Counted from the stretch's first letter, positions 13,050 through 63,830 are shown. The stretch is 64,000 nt of DNA from Phyllobacteriaceae bacterium (GCA_043744175.1 JAYTVD010000126.1:1136-65135), one strand, 5' to 3'. Notes: generated from the sequence alone by a model not told the origin. Program-made: numbers and translations.

Positions 13050-13075
13050 CTCCCCCTTTTAATTAGCTTCGCCCC

Positions 13076-13193
13076 AAAAATTCGTGATGATGAGTCAAAT
13101 AGCGTGGATGTTCGAGAACCGGAGCGGAGCGTACTTAAGTACGTGAGCACCGGAAGCACAGAACACCCGCGCTAGTTGGCCATCAGCGCGGAT
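13076..13193. repeat. 118-bp long-palindrome intergenic repeat, copy A
   Basis: Shares an identical 44-nt core, GAGAACCGGAGCGGAGCGTACTTAAGTACGTGAGCACCGGAAGC, with copy B, and the flanks align along the whole length. The left and right halves are imperfect reverse complements. It lies between convergent gene ends. Confidence 0.85.
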
Positions 13194-17395: not shown

Positions 17396-17435
17396 ATATT
17401 CCTCAATGGCAGCGGCAACTTAGCGCCGCCGCTGC

Positions 17436-17553
17436 AAAAATTCGGGATGCTGAGTCAAATAGTGTGGTCGTTTGAGAACCGGAGCGGAGCGTACTTAAGT
17501 ACGTGAGCACCGGAAGCGCAAAACGACCGCGCTAGTTGGCCAGCAGCACGGAT
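17436..17553. repeat. 118-bp long-palindrome repeat, copy B (intercistronic)
   Basis: Same family as 13076..13193. It fills the gap between the binding-protein stop (17555) and the ATPase start (17395). Confidence 0.85.
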
Positions 17554-18857: not shown

Positions 18858-19766
18858 TTATTTCTGCCGTGCGCCCCGATGCGTCTGCGCAATGCGGATA
18901 AAGTCCCGCGCGGAGTCTGGCAGGCTGGAGCCCTTGCGCCACACCATGCCCACTTGCACGGCGGGCAACTGTCCGGAAACATCGCGCGATTCAATCCGGT
19001 CGCCTTCCAGTGACCAAGGCCGGTAAACCAAATCCGGCAGCAGCGCCACGCCCGCGCCCGTCGCCACGAGTGAACGCACCGCTTCAACAGACCGCGTGCG
19101 GAACGCCACGTGGGGCTTTGCCCCCAGCGCGGAGAGCAGCTTGCCGGTGTTCTCCTCAATCTCGTCCACGGTCAGCATAATCAGCGGCTCGCGGGCGATA
19201 TCCGCGATGCTGATAATATCCGCGCCCGCCAGCTTGTGCCCAAGCGGCAGCCACACACGATAGGGCGAGACTTCCAAAATCTCCGCCTGCAGCGCCATGC
19301 GGTCGCGCAGGTTAGATGTCACCATCACGGCCACATCCAACTCGCCGCCGATGAGAAGATGCTCCAGATAATCGCCATTATCCTCAATCGCCGTCACTTC
19401 AACACCGGGAAACGCGCGGCGATAGCGCGCCAAAACATCGGAAAGCACATAGCCCGCCACCAGCGATGTAACCCCCAGCGCCAGTCGCCCGCCTTTGATT
19501 TCGCGCTCGTCCGAAAACGTCCGCCGCGCGTCGCCAACATCGGCCAATATGCGCGTGGCATGACGCAAAAACTGCTGGCCCTTATGGGTAATATTTAAGC
19601 CCCGCGCATGGCGCTCAAACAGCGAAACACCCAAATCCTGCTCCAGTTCTTTAATCGCCTCTGTCACCGACGATTGCGAAATAGACAAGTTCTGCGCGGC
19701 GCCCGAAACCGTGCCGTTTTCCGCCACCGCGATAAAATATTGAAGCTGTCTAAGGGTGAATGCCAT
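18858..19766 (-). CDS. LysR-family transcriptional regulator
   Basis: Start set at MAFTLRQLQYFIAVAENGTVSGAAQNLSISQSSVTEAIKELE, a canonical LTTR HTH. 302 aa. Confidence 0.85.
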   Translation of the reverse strand: MAFTLRQLQYFIAVAENGTVSGAAQNLSISQSSVTEAIKELEQDLGVSLFERHARGLNITHKGQQFLRHATRILADVGDARRTFSDEREIKGGRLALGVTSLVAGYVLSDVLARYRRAFPGVEVTAIEDNGDYLEHLLIGGELDVAVMVTSNLRDRMALQAEILEVSPYRVWLPLGHKLAGADIISIADIAREPLIMLTVDEIEENTGKLLSALGAKPHVAFRTRSVEAVRSLVATGAGVALLPDLVYRPWSLEGDRIESRDVSGQLPAVQVGMVWRKGSSLPDSARDFIRIAQTHRGARQK

Positions 19767-19872
19767 GTGGCTATAGTGGCGAAACGAGCAGGAATGGGCA
19801 AGGCGCAATTCGCGGGCTAACTTGAAACAACGGGTAACGGCACTAGCTTTTATGACGCAAGAGGAACCAAAA

Positions 19873-20166
19873 ATGAACACGGCAGTCAGCGATCACTTAG
19901 CCAAGCACGGCAGTGTTTATATGTCCGTCACCGGCCTCAAGGCCAAAGGCTTGCTGGCAAAACTGTCCTTCTGGCGTCACGCCATCCCATCGCTTTCGCA
20001 GGCCAAGACTGCACCGGGACTATTGTTCTTGGAGGTAAAGCCGCTAAATGGCTACCACCACACACTCACAGTTTGGGAAAACCGGCAGGCAATGGTCACT
20101 TACATCCGCACTGGCGCTCATGCCAAAGCCATGAAAATTTTAATAAATTCGCAACTGGGAGGATAG
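19873..20166 (+). CDS. small conserved-looking protein of unknown function, possibly frameshifted near its 3' end
   Basis: 97 codons from the ATG after GAGGAA. A second frame overlapping the end (to 20243) encodes a plausible C-terminus, ...KFATGRIVGLEVSAAPTWEQALKIWAEQGRAV. Confidence 0.4.
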   Translation: MNTAVSDHLAKHGSVYMSVTGLKAKGLLAKLSFWRHAIPSLSQAKTAPGLLFLEVKPLNGYHHTLTVWENRQAMVTYIRTGAHAKAMKILINSQLGG

Positions 20167-40736: not shown

Positions 40737-40756
40737 CAAACTCAATATTGAGTTTG
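40737..40756. repeat. perfect 20-bp palindrome CAAACTCAATATTGAGTTTG
   Basis: Read directly. It lies immediately before repeat copy C. Confidence 0.6.
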
Positions 40757-40759
40757 ACA

Positions 40760-40872
40760 CAAAATTCGCTTTGGTGAGTCAAATAGAGTGAGTTTCGAGA
40801 ACCGGAGCGGAGCGTACATTTGGTACGTGAGCACCGGAAGCGCAGAAAGTTGCTCTAGTTGGCCGCCAAAGT
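40760..40872. repeat. long-palindrome repeat, copy C
   Basis: Same arms as copies A and B (GAGAACCGGAGCGGAGCGTAC ... GTACGTGAGCACCGGAAGC), but the apical loop is ATTTG instead of TTAA. It lies between the convergent DMT gene and serA. Confidence 0.8.
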
Positions 40873-43716: not shown

Positions 43717-43834
43717 GTTGGCTATCCTTCCAGATAGTGGCCTCTCGTTGGGGAGAGGTGGCCCACCGCGGCTTTTATGGAAGGGCAAATGTGTCGTCAA
43801 GTCCAATTGTTCAACCGCGACATTTTATGCTCAA

Positions 43835-57572: not shown

Positions 57573-57641
57573 TCACGTTCCCTTATATCTCTACGCACTT
57601 TATATGCGTGATAAGTCAAAAGTTTGAAAGCCGCGTCTCCT

Positions 57642-58874
57642 ATGAAAATCCTAAGTCTCGCCGCCATCCTCGCCCTACTCATCGCACCTATGGCGGACGC
57701 TGCAACGTTCAAACCCAAGCGCGGCATTTCGTTGGATATTTGGACAACATGGCCACAGGAAGATCAATGGAGCGATGCAACGACCGTGCTGCCGTTCCCC
57801 GAATGGCGCAAAACGATGGGCACAACAGAACTAAAAGCGCTGAAGGGCGCAGGCTTTGATTTTGTGCGCATTCCCGTGGACCCTTCCATTTTCCTATCCG
57901 ATAAATCCGCAGCGCTTCATGACCAGCTTTATGATTCCGTTTTCCAATCCGTCAAAATGGCGGAGGATGCAGGGCTGAATGTCATTGTTGATCTGCACTG
58001 GTTACCCGGCAGCAGCACGCGTCCCATCGGTACTAGCGAGGTACTGAAAGACGAAACCACGTTCGAAAACTATCTGACTTTCACCCGCCGCATCGCGCAG
58101 TCTATTGCTCGTGAGAATCCTGAGCGCGTGGCATTAGAGCCATTCAACGAGCCAACGATTGATTGCGACAGCGACGGCACAAGTGATTGGCCCGCAAAGC
58201 TGAAACAGACTTTCGCCGCCGCCCGCGCTTCCGCGCCTGATCTCACACTCATTCTCTCCGGCGCCTGTTGGGGCGGCGCAGAAGGTCTGGCCAAGCTCGA
58301 CCCCAAGGAATATCCGGACGACAATCTAATATGGTCATTTCACTCTTACGACCCGTTCATCATCACCCATCAAGGGGCGACGTGGACAGGCGACTTCATG
58401 CCTTATGTCTATGGCTTGCCCTTCCCGCTTTATGAAACGCCAAAGCCTGAGCTGGATAAAATCCTCGATACAATTCGCGCGCGGATAAAGGCAAATGCAC
58501 CTGCAGATAAAGTCTCTGGCCATCTCGCCTATCTTGATGAGCAGATCGCGCTGATCGCCACCAAGGAAGGCCAAGAAGCGGAAATGGACCGCGCGTTTGC
58601 CAAAGTGGCGGGCTGGGCCAAGCAAAACAATATTGATCCTGCCACAATCATGCTCGGCGAGTTCGGCATCATCCGGCAGGAGTATCAAAACCCCGTTGTC
58701 ATCCCCGGCCCCACTCGCGCCGCCTATTATAAGACGCAAATGGAGCGCGCCGAAAGCTACGGCTTTGCATGGGCGCTATGGAGCTACGGTGGCCCGTTCG
58801 GCGTGATCGAAGAATTTGAGGCCAGAAAGTCCGAAACAGATGTGATCGACATTGTGAAAGAATTGCCGCGATAG
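57642..58874 (+). CDS. secreted glycoside hydrolase family 5 (cellulase-like)
   Basis: Signal peptide MKILSLAAILALLIAPMADA. NEP motif (ALEPFNEPT, acid/base Glu) and GEFG (nucleophile Glu). Confidence 0.75.
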   Translation: MKILSLAAILALLIAPMADAATFKPKRGISLDIWTTWPQEDQWSDATTVLPFPEWRKTMGTTELKALKGAGFDFVRIPVDPSIFLSDKSAALHDQLYDSVFQSVKMAEDAGLNVIVDLHWLPGSSTRPIGTSEVLKDETTFENYLTFTRRIAQSIARENPERVALEPFNEPTIDCDSDGTSDWPAKLKQTFAAARASAPDLTLILSGACWGGAEGLAKLDPKEYPDDNLIWSFHSYDPFIITHQGATWTGDFMPYVYGLPFPLYETPKPELDKILDTIRARIKANAPADKVSGHLAYLDEQIALIATKEGQEAEMDRAFAKVAGWAKQNNIDPATIMLGEFGIIRQEYQNPVVIPGPTRAAYYKTQMERAESYGFAWALWSYGGPFGVIEEFEARKSETDVIDIVKELPR

Positions 58875-58953
58875 TTAAGGAAGCTCCAAACTCATTGCAC
58901 CGCGAAAGCCACTCCGTTAAGACTGGCTTCAACCAACAGGTTTAGCAACACCC

Positions 58954-60087
58954 ATGCGCCTTTCTGCAATTCTCTCAACATTTGCGATGTGCCTTGCACT
59001 AGTCGCCTGTGCCACCAAGCCAACCGTTGGCTTGGGCGCGATTGCCAAACAAGTGGATGCGACCAGTGAGCGGGTGTTTCTCGCCACCATGCGTGTGCCA
59101 TCACCGGATGAGCAAATTTTGTTTGGCGGCGAGCGGGCCGACTATCTGCACTTTGCCGATTTTAATATCTCGGTGCCGAAAAATCGCATTGCCGGTAGCA
59201 TTGAGTTTCCAACCGCTAAACCGGATTTGAAGAAGCAATTTGCTGTCACATCCGCCACTTTAACCGACGATGAGACCATTTTAGCATCGAGATTGCGCGC
59301 CGCGCTCGCCAGCCTGCCGCCCGAGCAACGCAATATTTTCATCTTCATTCATGGCTATAACGTCACCTTTGCCGAAGGCCTGTTCGATCAAGCGCAGCTG
59401 CGTCACGACTATGAAATTCCCGGCGTGTCGCTGCATTACTCATGGCCGTCAGCTGCCAAAACCGCGCTCTATCTTTATGATCGTGATAGCGCCGAATATG
59501 CCCGCGATGGCTTGGTAAAAACACTGAAGATTGCCGCCGCCGCCAAACCGAACTCCATCATTATGCTTGGCCACTCCATGGGAACCTTCGTCACAATGGA
59601 AGCACTGCGCACCCTCTCGCTAACAGGCGACACAGCGACAGTTGGCCTGATAAACCCGTTGATATTGGCCGCCCCTGATATCGACCAAGATGTTTTCCGC
59701 GAACAATTGGCATCGCTCACAACCCGCCCCAAAGCTATATTGGTGCTGGTGTCCGAAGAGGACAAAGCGCTGCGCATTTCAGGCGGCTTGCGCGGCGGTA
59801 AACCTCGCGTGGGGGCAGGCGCGAACAAAGACGAGCTGGTCGCCAGCGGCCTCATCGTGCTGGATTTAGCCACCGTGCGCGCGAAGGGTGATGGCCTCAG
59901 CCACTCCACTTATGCCAATTCGCCGGCACTCATTGCGCTCGTACGCAGCGGTAAACTAAACATCGCCAGCCTTGCAGGCGGCAAACGGGCCAAAGGCAAC
60001 AATATTCTCGCGCAAAGCCTAGGCTTCGGTGGCGATTTACTCTCGTCGATTGTTTATCTGCCAGCAAAATTGGCCGGCGCAAGATAG
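58954..60087 (+). CDS. alpha/beta-hydrolase lipoprotein (DUF900-like)
   Basis: Lipobox LALVAC. IFIHGYN and the nucleophile elbow GHSMG. Confidence 0.7.
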   Translation: MRLSAILSTFAMCLALVACATKPTVGLGAIAKQVDATSERVFLATMRVPSPDEQILFGGERADYLHFADFNISVPKNRIAGSIEFPTAKPDLKKQFAVTSATLTDDETILASRLRAALASLPPEQRNIFIFIHGYNVTFAEGLFDQAQLRHDYEIPGVSLHYSWPSAAKTALYLYDRDSAEYARDGLVKTLKIAAAAKPNSIIMLGHSMGTFVTMEALRTLSLTGDTATVGLINPLILAAPDIDQDVFREQLASLTTRPKAILVLVSEEDKALRISGGLRGGKPRVGAGANKDELVASGLIVLDLATVRAKGDGLSHSTYANSPALIALVRSGKLNIASLAGGKRAKGNNILAQSLGFGGDLLSSIVYLPAKLAGAR

Positions 60088-61122
60088 TCACTCATCCTCA
60101 AACAGCAGCGCCGTTTGCGCCGCATCGCGCGGTGGCGCCATGCCAAGATGTTTCCATGCATTGGCCGCCAGCACCCGCCCGCGCGGGGTGCGCTGCAAGA
60201 ACCCCTGCTGAATAAGATAAGGCTCGATGATGTCTTCAATCGCATCGCGCGGCTCAGATAGGCCAGCGGCTATGGTTTCAACGCCAACCGGCCCGCCGCC
60301 AAAATTTTGCGCGATCATATTCAAATAGCGCCGGTCAAGTTGGTCGAGGCCCATCGAATCCACTTCCAGCCGGATAAGCGCCTCATCCGCCACCTTGCGG
60401 GTAATTTTATCATCGCCCGCCACAATAGCGAAATCGCGCACGCGGCGCAGCAGCCGCCCGGCAATACGCGGCGTGCCGCGCGAGCGTTTAGCAATCTCAA
60501 GCGCGCCGCCATCATCAATGGGAGCCCCCAAAATGCGCGCCCCACGCCGCACGATTAGTTCCAGTTCCTCGACGGTGTAAAAGTTCAAACGCACCGGAAT
60601 GCCGAACCGATCGCGCAGCGGGTTAGTGAGAAGCCCAAGGCGCGTGGTCGCCGCCACAAGGGTAAACTTCGCCAAATCGATCTTCACCGACCGCGCCGCC
60701 GGCCCCTCGCCGATAATCAAATCAAGCTGGTAATCTTCCATCGCGGGATAGAGAATTTCCTCCACCGCTGGTGATAGCCGGTGGATTTCATCAATGAACA
60801 GCACGTCGTTTTCTTCGAGGTTCGTCAAAAGCGCCGCTAGATCACCAGCTTTCGCAATCACAGGGCCAGAGGTTGAGCGGAAATTCACCCCCAATTCCTT
60901 GGCCATAATCTGCGCCAAAGTGGTTTTGCCGAGACCCGGAGGCCCAACGAACAAAACATGATCCAGCGCCTCACCGCGCGACTTCGCGGCTTCAATGAAA
61001 ACCTTCAGATTTTCCCGCGCCGCTTTTTGCCCGACAAATTCATGCAAAGACTGCGGACGCAAAGTCGAGTCTGCATCCTCGCCGCGCTTTTCCGGAGTGA
61101 TTAGGCGTGGGGCGTCACTCAT
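60088..61122 (-). CDS. ruvB: Holliday junction branch-migration helicase RuvB
   Basis: [12 protein letters not shown], Walker [10 protein letters not shown] and DEIHRL. Confidence 0.95.
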
Positions 61123-61523
61123 GCCAATAACTCCATATCGTGAATTGAATCTGCGGCAATTTTGTCAAAAGTCAGCGTATGAATGCAGCCGTTACGCCTA
61201 TTCAACAGGCCTATCACTGCGTCAGAATAATCACATTTGCTGTCTTCGCATACCACGGCGGCATCACCGATAATTTGATAATGCTCAACCTCAAGATCGC
61301 GACGCTCCAGTAAGCTGCGAATGGCACGAAGCACGGCTGTCCGAGGATATTTATAAAACCGACTTAACGTCCACGAAAACTCTAAAATAACGGCGATATT
61401 GACGAAAAATACGTCCGTTTCCTTGCGTTGTGCAATTAATTTCGCAACGCGCGCCGTCTGCGCCTCATCATCACGGACGAAAGTTCGCAAAAGCACATTT
61501 GTATCAAGCCCGATCAAAGCCAT
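61119..61523 (-). CDS. vapC: PIN-domain ribonuclease toxin (VapC-like), module 1
   Basis: 134 aa. Acidic residues sit at PIN positions (GLDTNV, ILEFS, DYSDAV). The stop overlaps the ruvB ATG (ATGA). Confidence 0.75.
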
Positions 61524-61807
61524 TATGAACCATCGTCCTGAGCAGCGCTTCCCGACACATGAAGTCCAACAGCGCCAGCTACCGCAGCATCAATCTCCTG
61601 AAGCGAAGCGCCCTTTCCACTCGGTGGATCACCAAGAAACCCCATCAAATCGACAAAATTTTTATTTCGCGGAATGACGATCATCTCATTACCACGAACC
61701 CACGCGTAGCACTGATCACCGGGCATAATATGCAATTCGTCGCGTATATCCTTGGGAACAGTCATCTGGCCTTTGGAAGTGATTGTTAGAAACGCACCCA
61801 TAGTCAT
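61523..61807 (-). CDS. vapB: AbrB/MazE/SpoVT-type antitoxin (VapB-like), module 1
   Basis: 94 aa. TSKGQMTVPKDIRDEL is the swapped-hairpin motif. TAATG overlap with the toxin start. Confidence 0.75.
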   Translation of the reverse strand: MTMGAFLTITSKGQMTVPKDIRDELHIMPGDQCYAWVRGNEMIVIPRNKNFVDLMGFLGDPPSGKGASLQEIDAAVAGAVGLHVSGSAAQDDGS

Positions 61808-61811
61808 CTCT

Positions 61812-61835
61812 CCTTACTTTTCAACAATAGTAAGG
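61812..61835. promoter_or_regulatory. inverted repeat CCTTACT-N10-AGTAAGG upstream of vapB module 1
   Basis: Read directly, 5 nt upstream of the antitoxin start. Candidate autoregulatory operator. Confidence 0.45.
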
Positions 61836-61857
61836 AATACATCAATAAGCAAGGAAA

Positions 61858-62475
61858 TCATCGCGCAAGCTCCTTCAGCCCGAGTCTAATCAGCTTGGCA
61901 CTATCCGGTGCCTCACCCGCCACTTTCAGTGCAGCAGCCACGGCGTTCGCCGCAATATCGCGCGAATAGCCAAGGTTGGTCAGCGCCGATACCGCATCCA
62001 TTACGGGCACCGGCGCAACGCCCTCGCCAAGCTCTTGCTTCAATCCAATTGTGCCAGATGCAGAACCCGCATAGGCTGGTGCTTTGTTCTTGAGCTCAGT
62101 CACAATCCGCTCGGCAACTTTTTTACCAACGCCCGGCGCACGCGAAACCATATCAATATCCCGCAGCGCGATTGCATTGGCCAAATCCGGCGCTGTAAGC
62201 GTGGATAAAACCGCCAGCGCAACTTTCGCGCCCACACCCTGCACGCTTTGCAACAGCTTGAACCAATCGCGCTCCAGCGTTGTTCGGAACCCGAACAATC
62301 GCAGCATATCCTCGCGCACGTAGGTTTCGATATACAGCACCACTGCCTCGCCCGGCCCCGGCAAATTGCCCAGCGTGCGCATCGAGCAGAACGCCACATA
62401 GCAAACGCCATGCACATCAATCACCACATGGTCTTCGGCGATTTCGTCAACCGTGCCTTTGATTTTTCCAATCAT
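61858..62475 (-). CDS. ruvA: Holliday junction DNA-binding protein RuvA
   Basis: MIGKIKG start, helix-hairpin-helix [17 protein letters not shown] and [11 protein letters not shown]. Confidence 0.95.
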
Positions 62476-62909
62476 GAATATGACTTTCTAAAAGGATGGG
62501 TTTCGGGCGTTATCAACTCGACCATAGGAAAATAAGTCCGGTAGCCAGCGGTATCGCGCGTAATAATGTGATGCCCGCACACGGCGGCATGGGCACCGAT
62601 GAAGAAGTCAGGAAGCGGGCGCTCTTTGGCCCCGCCAGATTTGCGGTAAACCAGAAACGCCTTCGAGGCCGCAAACGCTGCCATATAGGGAATTTCCTCA
62701 CGACGGAATTCGCGGGTCGGCAACAGTGCATCCACTTCTTGGTAACTTTCATAGCGATATGAAAGCTCGGCAAAAATAATCTGATTGATGATTAACTCAT
62801 GCGCCATCGCGGTTGCCACAATCGCATTCTTAGACCAATCGGCCCAAACCGGATCTTGAAAAGCAATATCAATCAACACATTAGAATCGACCAGCGCAGC
62901 CACGATCAA
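62472..62909 (-). CDS. vapC: PIN-domain ribonuclease toxin (VapC-like), module 2
   Basis: 145 aa with [20 protein letters not shown] and ITRD. The stop overlaps the ruvA ATG (ATGA). Confidence 0.75.
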
Positions 62910-63172
62910 CGATCTCTGGTTATGGTCATAACATCACTAGCGCTCAAATCGGGGTTACCCGTTCCTTCGAGCCTTTTCAAAGTCGCAAGCAGCCGGTCAA
63001 GCCGCAACTGATTATCATTCTCGCCGACAGCATTTTGATTTTGAATGGTAATCTTGCCATTCTCGACACCAAACAGCACATCGCTATTCAGCTCAATTCC
63101 CGCAAGCTGGCGCAAATCGCGCGGTATTGTCACTTGGCCCTTGCTGGTAACGCGCATGATCTTCGTCTCCAC
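62906..63172 (-). CDS. vapB: AbrB/SpoVT-type antitoxin (VapB-like), module 2
   Basis: 88 aa with VTSKGQVTIPRDLRQLAG. 4-nt overlap with the toxin. Confidence 0.75.
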   Translation of the reverse strand: METKIMRVTSKGQVTIPRDLRQLAGIELNSDVLFGVENGKITIQNQNAVGENDNQLRLDRLLATLKRLEGTGNPDLSASDVMTITRDR

Positions 63173-63175
63173 TTG

Positions 63176-63218
63176 AAGTAAGAGATATTCTTACTTCAAG
63201 TAAGGGATATTCTTACTT
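63176..63218. promoter_or_regulatory. two tandem palindromes AAGTAAG(A/G)-GATAT-TCTTACTT upstream of vapB module 2
   Basis: 63176..63196 and 63198..63218, read directly. They begin 4 nt upstream of the antitoxin start. Confidence 0.5.
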
Positions 63219-63238
63219 TTGGAACAAGTCAAGAACAT

Positions 63239-63754
63239 TCATCCCGCCAGCGCTAGCCTCCTTAAAGCTATCCCCCCTCGATTATGCGCGTGACATATCG
63301 CAATCGCCAGCGCATCCGCCGCATCGGGGCCGGTAAATATGGCCTTTGGCATCAGCACTTTTACCATCATTTGAATTTGCGCTTTTTCGCCGTGACCCAC
63401 GCCGATCACGGATTTTTTCACTGCGTTCGGCGCATATTCCGCCACTTGTAGTCCCGCTTTGGCCGGAACCAGCATAGCGATGCCTCGCGCTTGACCGAGC
63501 TTCAGCGTAGCCGCGGCGTCCTTGTTGACGAAAGTCGCCTCAACAGCCGCCTCAACGGGCATATGGGTGTGGATGACTGCAACCAGCCCGTCATGCAGCT
63601 GGCAAAGCCGCGAGGCCATGTCGGACTTATCATCGGAGGTCACAGTGCCGGATGCCACGAAGTGGAGCGAATTGCCAAGCGATTCAATAATGCCCCAGCC
63701 CATACGGCGCAGGCCCGGATCAATACCAATAATGCGAATCGCTGACGCCACCAT
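63239..63754 (-). CDS. ruvC: crossover junction endodeoxyribonuclease RuvC
   Basis: [16 protein letters not shown] (catalytic Asp), EYAPNAVKK, and [13 protein letters not shown]. Confidence 0.95.
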
Positions 63755-63830
63755 AAATCCCCCGTTGAGAGAGACTTATATCAATTATCAAAGGTGAACA
63801 AACAGAAAACAGAATTACTATGGAGCGAGG

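Follow-up and report, generated by a model that had tools for sequence, protein, structure and literature searches.

This study concerns the ruvCAB region of a Phyllobacteriaceae bacterium, in which two VapBC toxin-antitoxin (TA) modules are embedded among the three ruv genes. The region occupies positions 60088-63754 on the minus strand of a 64,000-nt stretch of DNA, referred to below as the window. Calling of open reading frames (ORFs) gives seven collinear minus-strand ORFs in the order ruvC, vapB1, vapC1, ruvA, vapB2, vapC2, and ruvB. This order, proposed in a first-pass annotation made from the sequence alone, is borne out by the ORF calls and by profile searches. We consider it likely that the seven genes form one unit, in which two unrelated type II VapBC cassettes occupy fixed slots of the Rhizobiales ruvCAB operon and are co-expressed with the ruv genes under SOS control.

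Gene Content of the ruvCAB Region

The ruv genes, which are collinear on one strand, are identified by the RuvC, RuvA, and RuvB equivalog models, all of which pass their cut-offs. All features of the region described below lie on the minus strand. The ruvC gene (63239-63754, 171 aa) matches PF02075 with E = 5.5e-42 and TIGR00228 with 129 bits, against a cut-off of 100.65. The ruvA gene (61858-62475, 205 aa) scores 184 bits with TIGR00084 (cut-off 85), and ruvB (60088-61122, 344 aa) scores 518.6 bits with NF000868 (cut-off 282). The first cassette, between ruvC and ruvA, comprises vapB1 (62906-63157, 83 aa), encoding an AbrB/SpoVT-type (MazE_antitoxin) antitoxin (PF04014, 33.7 bits, gathering threshold 24.7), and vapC1 (62472-62903, 143 aa), encoding a PIN-domain toxin (PF01850, 34.6 bits, gathering threshold 23.6). 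The second, between ruvA and ruvB, comprises vapB2 (61523-61801, 92 aa), whose product is again an AbrB/SpoVT-type antitoxin (PF04014, 29.4 bits versus 24.7; TIGR01439, 37.4 versus 28.3), and vapC2 (61119-61523, 134 aa), encoding a second PIN-domain toxin (PF01850, 33.7 bits, gathering threshold 23.6). The profile searches, which had been suggested as a check on the four small ORFs, uphold the PIN and AbrB-type families, with all scores above gathering. No Rfam match was found in the region at E ≤ 1.

Three of the small genes have alternative starts. Shine-Dalgarno (SD) spacing and the gene calls on identical metagenome contigs favor ATG at 63157 over GTG at 63172 for vapB1; the gene calls on these contigs, L001 and L002, give 83 aa. 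By the same evidence, GTG at 62903 is likelier than TTG at 62909 for vapC1, and ATG at 61801 is likelier than the alternative at 61807 for vapB2. These choices affect the overlaps within each module. The overlap of vapB2 and vapC2 described in the first-pass annotation, a TAATG at 61523, is present and amounts to 1 nt. The 4-nt overlap described for vapB1 and vapC1 at 62906-62909 is obtained with the alternative starts, whereas the likelier starts leave a 2-nt gap.

The Small Genes Encode Two Distinct VapBC Pairs

The four small genes are real, intact, and under purifying selection, and they encode AbrB-type VapB and PIN VapC pairs. The ratios of nonsynonymous to synonymous substitution rates (dN/dS) are 0.10 for vapB1, 0.06 for vapC1, 0.04 for vapB2, and 0.20 for vapC2, and those of the ruv genes are 0.01-0.02. 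These values were computed against the nearest relative, L093, a metagenome-assembled genome (MAG) with the same seven-gene layout, and against it only, because dS is saturated versus L044 and L008. The acidic tetrad D6/E46/D99/D117 of VapC1 (143-aa numbering) and the corresponding acidic residues D7/E48/D101/D120 of VapC2 are invariant or nearly so in family alignments, and the tetrad is kept in 98-100% of 90 aligned PIN proteins. The possibility that the small ORFs are untranslated spacers is rejected in view of the dN/dS values, the conserved catalytic residues, and ORF lengths that are conserved in >60 cassettes. The toxins are presumably Mg-dependent RNases that are neutralized by their antitoxins.

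Structural comparisons were made with AlphaFold2 (AF2) models. The VapC1 model has a predicted local distance difference test (pLDDT) score of 92 and superposes on Rickettsia felis VapC2, VapC-1 of nontypeable Haemophilus influenzae (NTHi), Shigella VapC, and Mycobacterium tuberculosis (Mtb) VapC15 and VapC11, with template modeling (TM) scores of 0.70-0.77 and a root-mean-square deviation (rmsd) of ~3 Å. The profile of the VapC1 family (PIN1) matches VapC15 in a PDB profile search. The VapC2 model has a pLDDT of 95 and is matched by Foldseek with a probability of 1.0 to PcrIIC1, PAE0151, and Mtb VapC20 and VapC26. For the profile of the VapC2 family (PIN2), the closest solved sequence relative is the PIN protein PcrIIC1 (8WMM, E = 9e-8). 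Single-sequence PDB searches with either PIN protein returned nothing meaningful, and family profiles were required. Close homologues of the window toxins carry the database name "VapC family toxin".

The PIN proteins could instead serve the recombination pathway as accessory DNA nucleases and not be toxins. In favor of this, their genes lie within the ruv operon, and PcrIIC1 is a PIN protein that works with Cas9 on DNA. However, an AbrB-type antitoxin gene with an autoregulatory palindrome precedes each PIN gene, and the PIN1 fold best matches VapC toxins. The same families are also found elsewhere as stand-alone TA pairs, and many relatives carry ruv genes without the cassettes. We therefore regard a role as DNA nucleases as highly improbable.

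The two modules differ from each other, as the first-pass annotation had recognized. The two PIN proteins give a BLASTP E value of 8.8 and are related only in profile-to-profile comparison (hhalign probability 94.9%, 23% identity), and the antitoxins (AT1 and AT2) align over their first 16 residues only. Recent duplication of one module is rejected in view of these alignments. Because the modules belong to different families, they were acquired independently. The proposal of two separate acquisitions is thus supported by the difference between the families, but the insertions are not events of this genome, because, across the clade, each of the two slots is home to one VapBC family of its own.

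Slot Occupancy in Related Genomes

The comparison set comprises the 80 species-representative genomes closest by RuvA, from Mesorhizobium, Phyllobacterium, Pseudaminobacter, Hoeflea, Aquamicrobium, Brucella/Ochrobactrum, Agrobacterium, and other genera. Both intergenic gaps were measured in the 78 loci that have all three ruv genes. Neither slot is occupied in 29 of these, only the ruvC-ruvA slot in 16, only the ruvA-ruvB slot in 13, and both slots in 20; the ruvC-ruvA slot is occupied in 36 of the 78 genomes. A doubly interrupted ruvCAB operon had been considered undescribed and unusual. This view does not hold, given the 20 relatives in which both slots are filled and a vapBC-ruvAB adjacency that is already in print (PMC11406972). 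VapBC-type cassettes are present at both slots in 17 of the 20 doubly occupied genomes, one of the 17 being degenerate. The doubly occupied genomes, named type strains among them, include Mesorhizobium sp. AaZ16 (a complete genome), M. silamurunense, M. hunchu, Neomesorhizobium albiziae, Oryzicola mucosus, Aquamicrobium soli, and Hoeflea marina. The double arrangement is also found on two identical metagenome contigs, in L093, in a marine-metagenome lineage on dozens of contigs, and in Rhizobium sp. S152.

Each slot has its own protein families. BLASTP clustering at E < 1e-12 assigns the 39 PIN1-like and 39 AT1-like proteins without exception to the ruvC-ruvA slot, and the 30 PIN2-like and 29 AT2-like proteins likewise to the ruvA-ruvB slot.

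Some relatives depart from one VapBC pair per slot. The ruvC-ruvA slot of Hoeflea marina (L064:4500-6000) holds two complete tandem VapBC pairs of different lineages, and that of L052 and L075 (4880-5600) holds an orphan antitoxin gene followed by a complete pair. In Mesorhizobium sp. M8A.F.Ca.ET.218.01.1.1 (L022:6849-7985), the ruvA-ruvB slot contains no VapBC pair and encodes a 378-aa T4 Rnl1-like RNA ligase (PF09511, E = 1.6e-25), an RNA-repair enzyme in the position where relatives have an RNase toxin. With the exception of this ligase, most other non-VapBC occupants of the ruvA-ruvB slot have no Pfam match. A Phyllobacterium MAG (L008:7359-7832) has an extra 157-aa ORF between vapC2 and ruvB, the start of which overlaps the vapC2 stop; it has no Pfam or PADLOC match. 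Long palindromic insertions resembling miniature inverted-repeat transposable elements (MITEs), which are not genes, lie in the ruvA-ruvB spacers of L019 (6616-6750) and L054 (6616-6900). The ruvA-ruvB slot therefore attracts other insertions too.

These patterns raise the question of whether the slots are hot spots for anti-phage or abortive-infection cargo, with the VapBC pairs acting mainly in phage defense. The pattern of presence, absence, and turnover resembles that of defense loci, and the RNA ligase in the ruvA-ruvB slot of one genome would suit such an island. We nevertheless find this explanation improbable. None of the four TA proteins matches a PADLOC defense-system model at E ≤ 0.001, the slots hold almost only VapBC pairs of two families, and no other defense genes lie nearby in the neighborhoods of the marine lineage, L093, or Rhizobium sp. 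S152.

Junctions between the Toxin Genes and ruvA or ruvB

The stop codon of each toxin gene overlaps the start codon of the ruv gene that follows. The TGA stop of vapC1 overlaps the ATG of ruvA in the sequence ATGA at 62472-62475, and the TGA stop of vapC2 overlaps the ATG of ruvB in the same manner at 61119-61122; both overlaps are present as first annotated. Among relatives, the vapC2-type stop overlaps the ruvB start as NTGA, with A, G, or T in the first position, in 24 of 29 ruvA-ruvB cassettes. The distance from the toxin end to the ruvA start is -4, 0, or 7-14 nt in most first-slot cassettes. In loci with an empty first slot, ruvC and ruvA themselves often overlap, stop on start, through an ATGA of this kind, and a cassette in this slot therefore reproduces the native coupling. 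The starts of ruvA (ATGAT...) and ruvB (ATGA...) contain TGA intrinsically.

The two ruv starts differ in their upstream signals. The ruvA gene of the window has no strong SD sequence upstream, and ruvB has a GGAG located 8 nt upstream, inside the 3′ end of vapC2, where it is encoded by the conserved C-terminal Met-Glu codons of the toxin. A terminator scan of the region revealed no terminator-like site between the seven genes, and the terminator-like matches that it did give have no bearing on the unit. Because intrinsic terminators are absent and the stop/start overlaps are conserved in relatives, co-transcription of the cassettes with ruvA and ruvB, together with translational coupling, is plausible.

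An SOS-Type Box Accompanies the First Cassette

A perfect SOS-box consensus, GTTCTTGACTTGTTC, lies at 63222-63236, 2 nt past the ruvC stop. It matches GTTC-N7-GTTC, the LexA-box consensus of Alphaproteobacteria, and has a TTGAC (-35) embedded in it. Only one other perfect match to GTTC-N7-GTTC exists in the 64-kb window. A near-consensus box, GTTTTCTGTTTGTTC, with one mismatch to GTTC-N7-GTTC, is located upstream of ruvC at 63796-63810. Nearly all of the related loci that were examined, as well as L089 and L215, have a GTTT-N7-GTTC box at a fixed distance upstream of ruvC. In Caulobacter, ruvC is an SOS gene and PruvC is SOS-induced (PMC12700426), and LexA sites have been predicted on alphaproteobacterial ruvCAB (PMC3323433).

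The box that follows ruvC is strongly conserved wherever a first-slot cassette is present. The 36 genome loci with an occupied ruvC-ruvA slot have 41 boxes, all of which (41/41) keep the two GTTC half-sites intact, and every copy of a tandem first-slot cassette has a separate box. Three boxes are variant. In two of these, the only change lies at a position that belongs neither to the half-sites nor to TTGAC; in the third (L049), TTTAC additionally replaces TTGAC. Metagenomes were also scanned for boxes linked to the conserved vapB start, which gave at least 120 stretches, and the contexts of 80 loci were listed. Among these 80, 58 are flanked by ruvC and ruvA, 20 are flanked by ruvC or ruvA alone on contigs too short for the other gene, and 2 have ruvA with no detectable ruvC match. 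None of the 80 listed loci has the box linked to a vapB start outside a ruvC-ruvA context.

The other perfect GTTC-N7-GTTC match in the window is at 19864-19878 on the minus strand, at the 5′ end of a minus-strand ORF (18858-19880). This ORF probably encodes a LysR-type regulator, is not an obvious SOS gene, and meets a divergent 114-aa ORF at the box. The match was considered as a positive control; it gives no support, being in a LysR-type divergent region.

Alignment of the sequences after the ruvC stop shows that first-slot cassettes have a common layout. All of them open with (A)TGTTCTTGACTTGTTC, followed by ~12-15 variable bases and then by a palindrome that abuts the SD sequence and start codon. 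The palindrome varies by lineage; it is GTAATACC-N5-GGTATTAC in most cassettes, AGTAAGA/TCTTACT in the lineage of the window, and GGTAATGAT/AATCATTACC in Rhizobium sp. S152. The types observed among homologous cassettes are GTAATACC, AGTAAGA, GGTAATGAT, and TTCCTTAC. In the window, operator-like palindromes of the AGTAAGA-N-TCTTACT type, with inverted and direct repeats, occupy 63171-63218 upstream of vapB1. They include a 13-nt perfect inverted repeat (63171-63183/63189-63201) that lies inside a 22-nt tandem duplication. As RNA or DNA, the operator could form a hairpin of -26.7 kcal/mol (z = -3.7). The 22-nt operator unit is tandem in the window (63171-63214) and single in L093. The duplication looks like a recent change that could alter the strength of repression.

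Second-slot cassettes have a control region of a different kind. The predicted vapB2 promoter/operator (61811-61854) consists of CCTTGC, which resembles a -35 element, followed by a TCCTTACT-N10-AGTAAGGA palindrome that overlaps the SD sequence. The inverted repeat at 61811-61821/61826-61836 is 11 nt long and 91% complementary. Second-slot cassettes have CCTTG soon after the ruvA stop, followed by TTCCTTACTAT-N8-10-GTAAGGA, and this layout is kept in most cassettes from other species and in L089. No SOS box was found in second-slot cassettes by alignment and box scanning of the related loci.

The first-pass annotation had placed a palindrome upstream of each module, and the inverted repeats at both sites confirm this. 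The palindromes are not due to chance, because equivalents sit at the same position in dozens of homologous cassettes. The annotation had also proposed that ruvA and ruvB would be expressed in part from TA-autoregulated promoters. The operator-like palindromes and the plausible coupling agree with this proposal. The first internal promoter, however, is probably under dual control by LexA and VapB and not TA-autoregulated alone, as judged from the box and the palindrome that follow ruvC.

Probable Cassette Turnover at the Two Slots

The similarity of the cassettes does not follow that of their hosts. Spearman coefficients between mean RuvABC identity and TA identity are 0.22 for PIN1, 0.17 for PIN2, 0.02 for AT1, and 0.10 for AT2. 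Genome pairs with >90% Ruv identity have PIN proteins that are as little as 34-43% identical, and among the closest relatives of the window (Ruv identity 85-88%), PIN2 identity ranges from 32% to 75%. In a sliding-window comparison with L004, DNA identity drops sharply at the cassette edges, from 70-88% in the ruv genes to 27-62% within the two cassettes. The GC content is 0.48-0.50 in the cassettes versus 0.55-0.59 in the ruv genes. Cassettes in L007, L062, and L027 are decaying. The uncoupling of cassette similarity from host divergence points to turnover of the cassettes at two fixed slots, and the sequence comparisons together indicate gain, replacement, decay, and loss.

Module 2 of the window (61119-61801) has 90-100% DNA identity to L093:5344-6026, with a dS of 0.12-0.22. 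Its ruv flanks are 80-93% identical to those of L093, with a dS of ~0.7. These values suggest recent lateral exchange or gene conversion of module 2.

The families are not confined to the ruv slots. VapC proteins of Deltaproteobacteria, Actinomycetota, and Planctomycetes are 53-59% identical to the window PIN1, a level similar to that of most PIN proteins from the same slot. They nest among the slot residents in a neighbor-joining tree, which is weak evidence for proteins this short. Their contexts in their own genomes are unrelated. PIN1-family VapBC pairs of a deltaproteobacterial and a Solirubrobacterales lineage (L083-L085 and L086-L088) adjoin DNA-metabolism genes, those for RadC and single-stranded DNA-binding protein (SSB) in one and an SOS-response-associated peptidase (SRAP) gene in the other. 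These neighbors may be a coincidence.

A single ancient insertion per slot, followed by rapid in situ divergence and repeated loss, would explain the distribution without lateral exchange of cassettes. It would account for the slot-specific families, each slot having only its own, and for the regulatory 5′ elements and junctions that are common to all cassettes of a slot. This account nevertheless seems rather unlikely to us. The identity of the TA proteins is almost uncorrelated with that of the Ruv proteins, and very close hosts have very different cassettes. Between the window and L093, the flanking ruv genes have diverged more than module 2 has. The position of VapC proteins from other phyla inside the slot clades, weak as this evidence is, also argues against in situ divergence.

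Model for Expression of the Seven-Gene Unit

These comparisons allow us to propose how the seven-gene unit could be expressed. The SOS-controlled ruvC promoter would drive the whole unit by read-through, since no terminators separate the genes. A first internal promoter, directly after ruvC, would be repressed jointly by LexA, through the box over its -35 element, and by VapB1 or the VapBC1 complex, through the palindrome over the -10 element and SD sequence. A second internal promoter, after ruvA, would be repressed and autoregulated by VapB2 or VapBC2. Ribosomes finishing vapC1 would translate ruvA, which lacks a strong SD sequence of its own, and would thereby copy the native ATGA coupling of ruvC and ruvA. 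Translation of ruvB would begin inside the vapC2 stop and would use the GGAG provided by the C-terminal codons of the toxin.

According to this model, DNA damage would raise the amounts of both TA pairs together with the Ruv proteins. The cassettes would behave as selfish, exchangeable elements that persist because they supply a promoter and a translation-initiation context to essential repair genes. A side effect would be that toxin and antitoxin synthesis is wired to DNA damage. The damage-raised TA expression could be of physiological use, for example by pausing growth while repair proceeds, or it could be a by-product of selfish cassettes at a tolerant, well-expressed site.

Several observations weigh against this model. 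The cassettes are dispensable for ruv function, given that ~37% of the relatives (29/78) have neither slot occupied. A perfect match to the box is in itself no proof of LexA binding, because the second perfect match in the window adjoins the LysR-type gene, which is not a known SOS gene, and the invariance of the box could derive in part from constraint on the -35 element. A consensus promoter scan detected no minus-strand sigma-70 site in the region; it used E. coli rules, which are uninformative for alphaproteobacterial promoters. The regulatory steps for this organism are all deduced from its sequence. As for the toxins, the VapC2 model, unlike that of VapC1, superposes poorly on solved PIN structures (TM 0.41-0.48, rmsd ~12 Å), and neither protein passes NF047959, the NCBIfam VapC equivalog (VapC1, 17 bits against a cut-off of 80; VapC2, no match).

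The cassettes might also be passive hitchhikers, that is, selfish insertions without a regulatory effect. Expression of ruvA and ruvB would then come essentially by read-through from the ruvC promoter, with internal promoters and overlaps that are incidental. Both slots are empty in 29 of the 78 relatives, the cassettes of L007, L062, and L027 are in decay, and both VapBC families are generic and occur in unrelated contexts of other phyla, all as expected for hitchhikers. In addition, ruvA and ruvB begin with ATGA whatever lies upstream, so that any in-frame upstream ORF would end there. However, the noncoding 15-mer GTTCTTGACTTGTTC is invariant while the cassette proteins fall to 30-60% identity, which argues for selection on the internal promoter. 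The NTGA junction is kept in 24 of the 29 cassettes, and each tandem cassette copy retains its own box. On balance, we judge passive hitchhiking to be somewhat unlikely.

A more far-reaching possibility, which we put forward only tentatively and regard as rather doubtful, is that the Rhizobiales ruvCAB operon has, in its two intergenic slots, docking sites dedicated to VapBC cassettes. Recombination would swap diverse cassettes between conserved flanks, one consisting of the ruvC end and the invariant LexA/-35 element and the other of the ruv start codons with their ATGA. A PIN toxin would then be under direct SOS control and be made with the Holliday-junction machinery. If this is true, the whole lineage would possess a brake on translation that is triggered by damage and acts in coordination with recombinational repair, and the CTTAC/GTAAG half-sites common to both operators of the window would allow cross-regulation between the modules.

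Relation to Known Systems

The seven-gene unit combines elements of a kind that is known: VapBC modules, SOS-linked type II TA systems, and interrupted ruvCAB operons. In the E. coli dinB-yafNOP and dinJ-yafQ systems and in Caulobacter higBA, a type II TA pair lies behind or within a LexA-controlled unit and is under dual control by LexA and the antitoxin. The toxins of these systems are of the RelE/HigB type rather than PIN proteins, and they are not translationally coupled to recombination genes. In contrast to these systems, LexA control is only predicted in the window. R. felis VapBC2 (PDB 3ZVK), NTHi VapBC-1, Shigella and Salmonella VapBC, and Mtb VapBC15 resemble the window modules in pairing a four-acidic PIN toxin with a DNA-binding antitoxin. 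In these systems, the antitoxin binds a palindromic promoter operator, whereas the window operators are predicted from sequence. They differ from the window modules in having 14-20% sequence identity to them and in being stand-alone or plasmid-borne, not nested in a repair operon.

Interruption of ruvCAB has been described in Vibrionaceae, where one or two inserted genes break up the ancestral operon, and ruvC and ruvAB each have LexA sites of their own upstream (PMC3323433). Unlike the cassettes of the window, those inserts are not described as TA pairs, and ruvC has lost its regulation there, whereas both boxes are kept here.

The closest precedent is a 2024 insertion sequencing (INSeq) study of Rhizobium leguminosarum bv. 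viciae 3841, in which overlapping vapB and vapC genes (RL3987 and RL3988) lie immediately upstream of ruvA and ruvB (RL3989 and RL3990), all four with the same attachment phenotype (PMC11406972). The common phenotype fits a single transcription unit. As in the window, strain 3841 has an AbrB-type VapB and a PIN VapC in the slot of cassette 1; its ruvA and ruvB, however, are adjacent, so that it has one cassette rather than two. The study does not discuss an SOS box, coupling, or distribution, and it reads the vapBC phenotype as TA function, not as possible polarity on ruvAB. The pattern described here thus carries a warning: root attachment in R. leguminosarum and other transposon phenotypes ascribed to these vapBC genes may reflect polarity on ruvAB.

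The exact 15-mer GTTCTTGACTTGTTC gave no match in a search of the literature, nor did a LexA or SOS box joined with VapBC in Alphaproteobacteria. In the searchable literature, we found no description of a LexA-type box tied to a ruvC-ruvA cassette, of slot-specific families with turnover, or of conserved NTGA docking. The window alone changes little, because the polymorphism of which it shows an ordinary state is widespread in Phyllobacteriaceae and Rhizobiaceae. The comparative pattern is of more use, as it offers a clean natural system for studying a possible wiring of chromosomal TA modules to the SOS response and to recombinational repair. Direct comparison is possible among close relatives that have both slots, one slot, or neither occupied. 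The pattern also points to selfish cassettes that embed in a repair operon and take over its promoter and translation-initiation context.

Other Features of the Window

Downstream of ruvB, synteny with L093 places cellulase-family (PF00150) and DUF900 genes at 57624-60087 on the plus strand of the window. In L093, the cellulase-family (PF00150) and DUF900 genes are on the opposite strand between ruvB and ybgC-tolQRAB-pal.

Two features lie farther from the ruv genes. A dispersed repeat of ~110 nt is present in three minus-strand copies, at ~13060-13190, ~17420-17550, and ~40740-40870, and has no Rfam match. Its core, ...CTTCCGGTGCTCACGTAC...GTACGCTCCGCTCCGGTTCTC...CTATTTGACTCA...CGAATTTT, is nearly identical among the copies. 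A serC leader (RF00517, 71.4 bits) at 43717-43768 on the minus strand is the only Rfam family that reaches its gathering threshold in the whole window.

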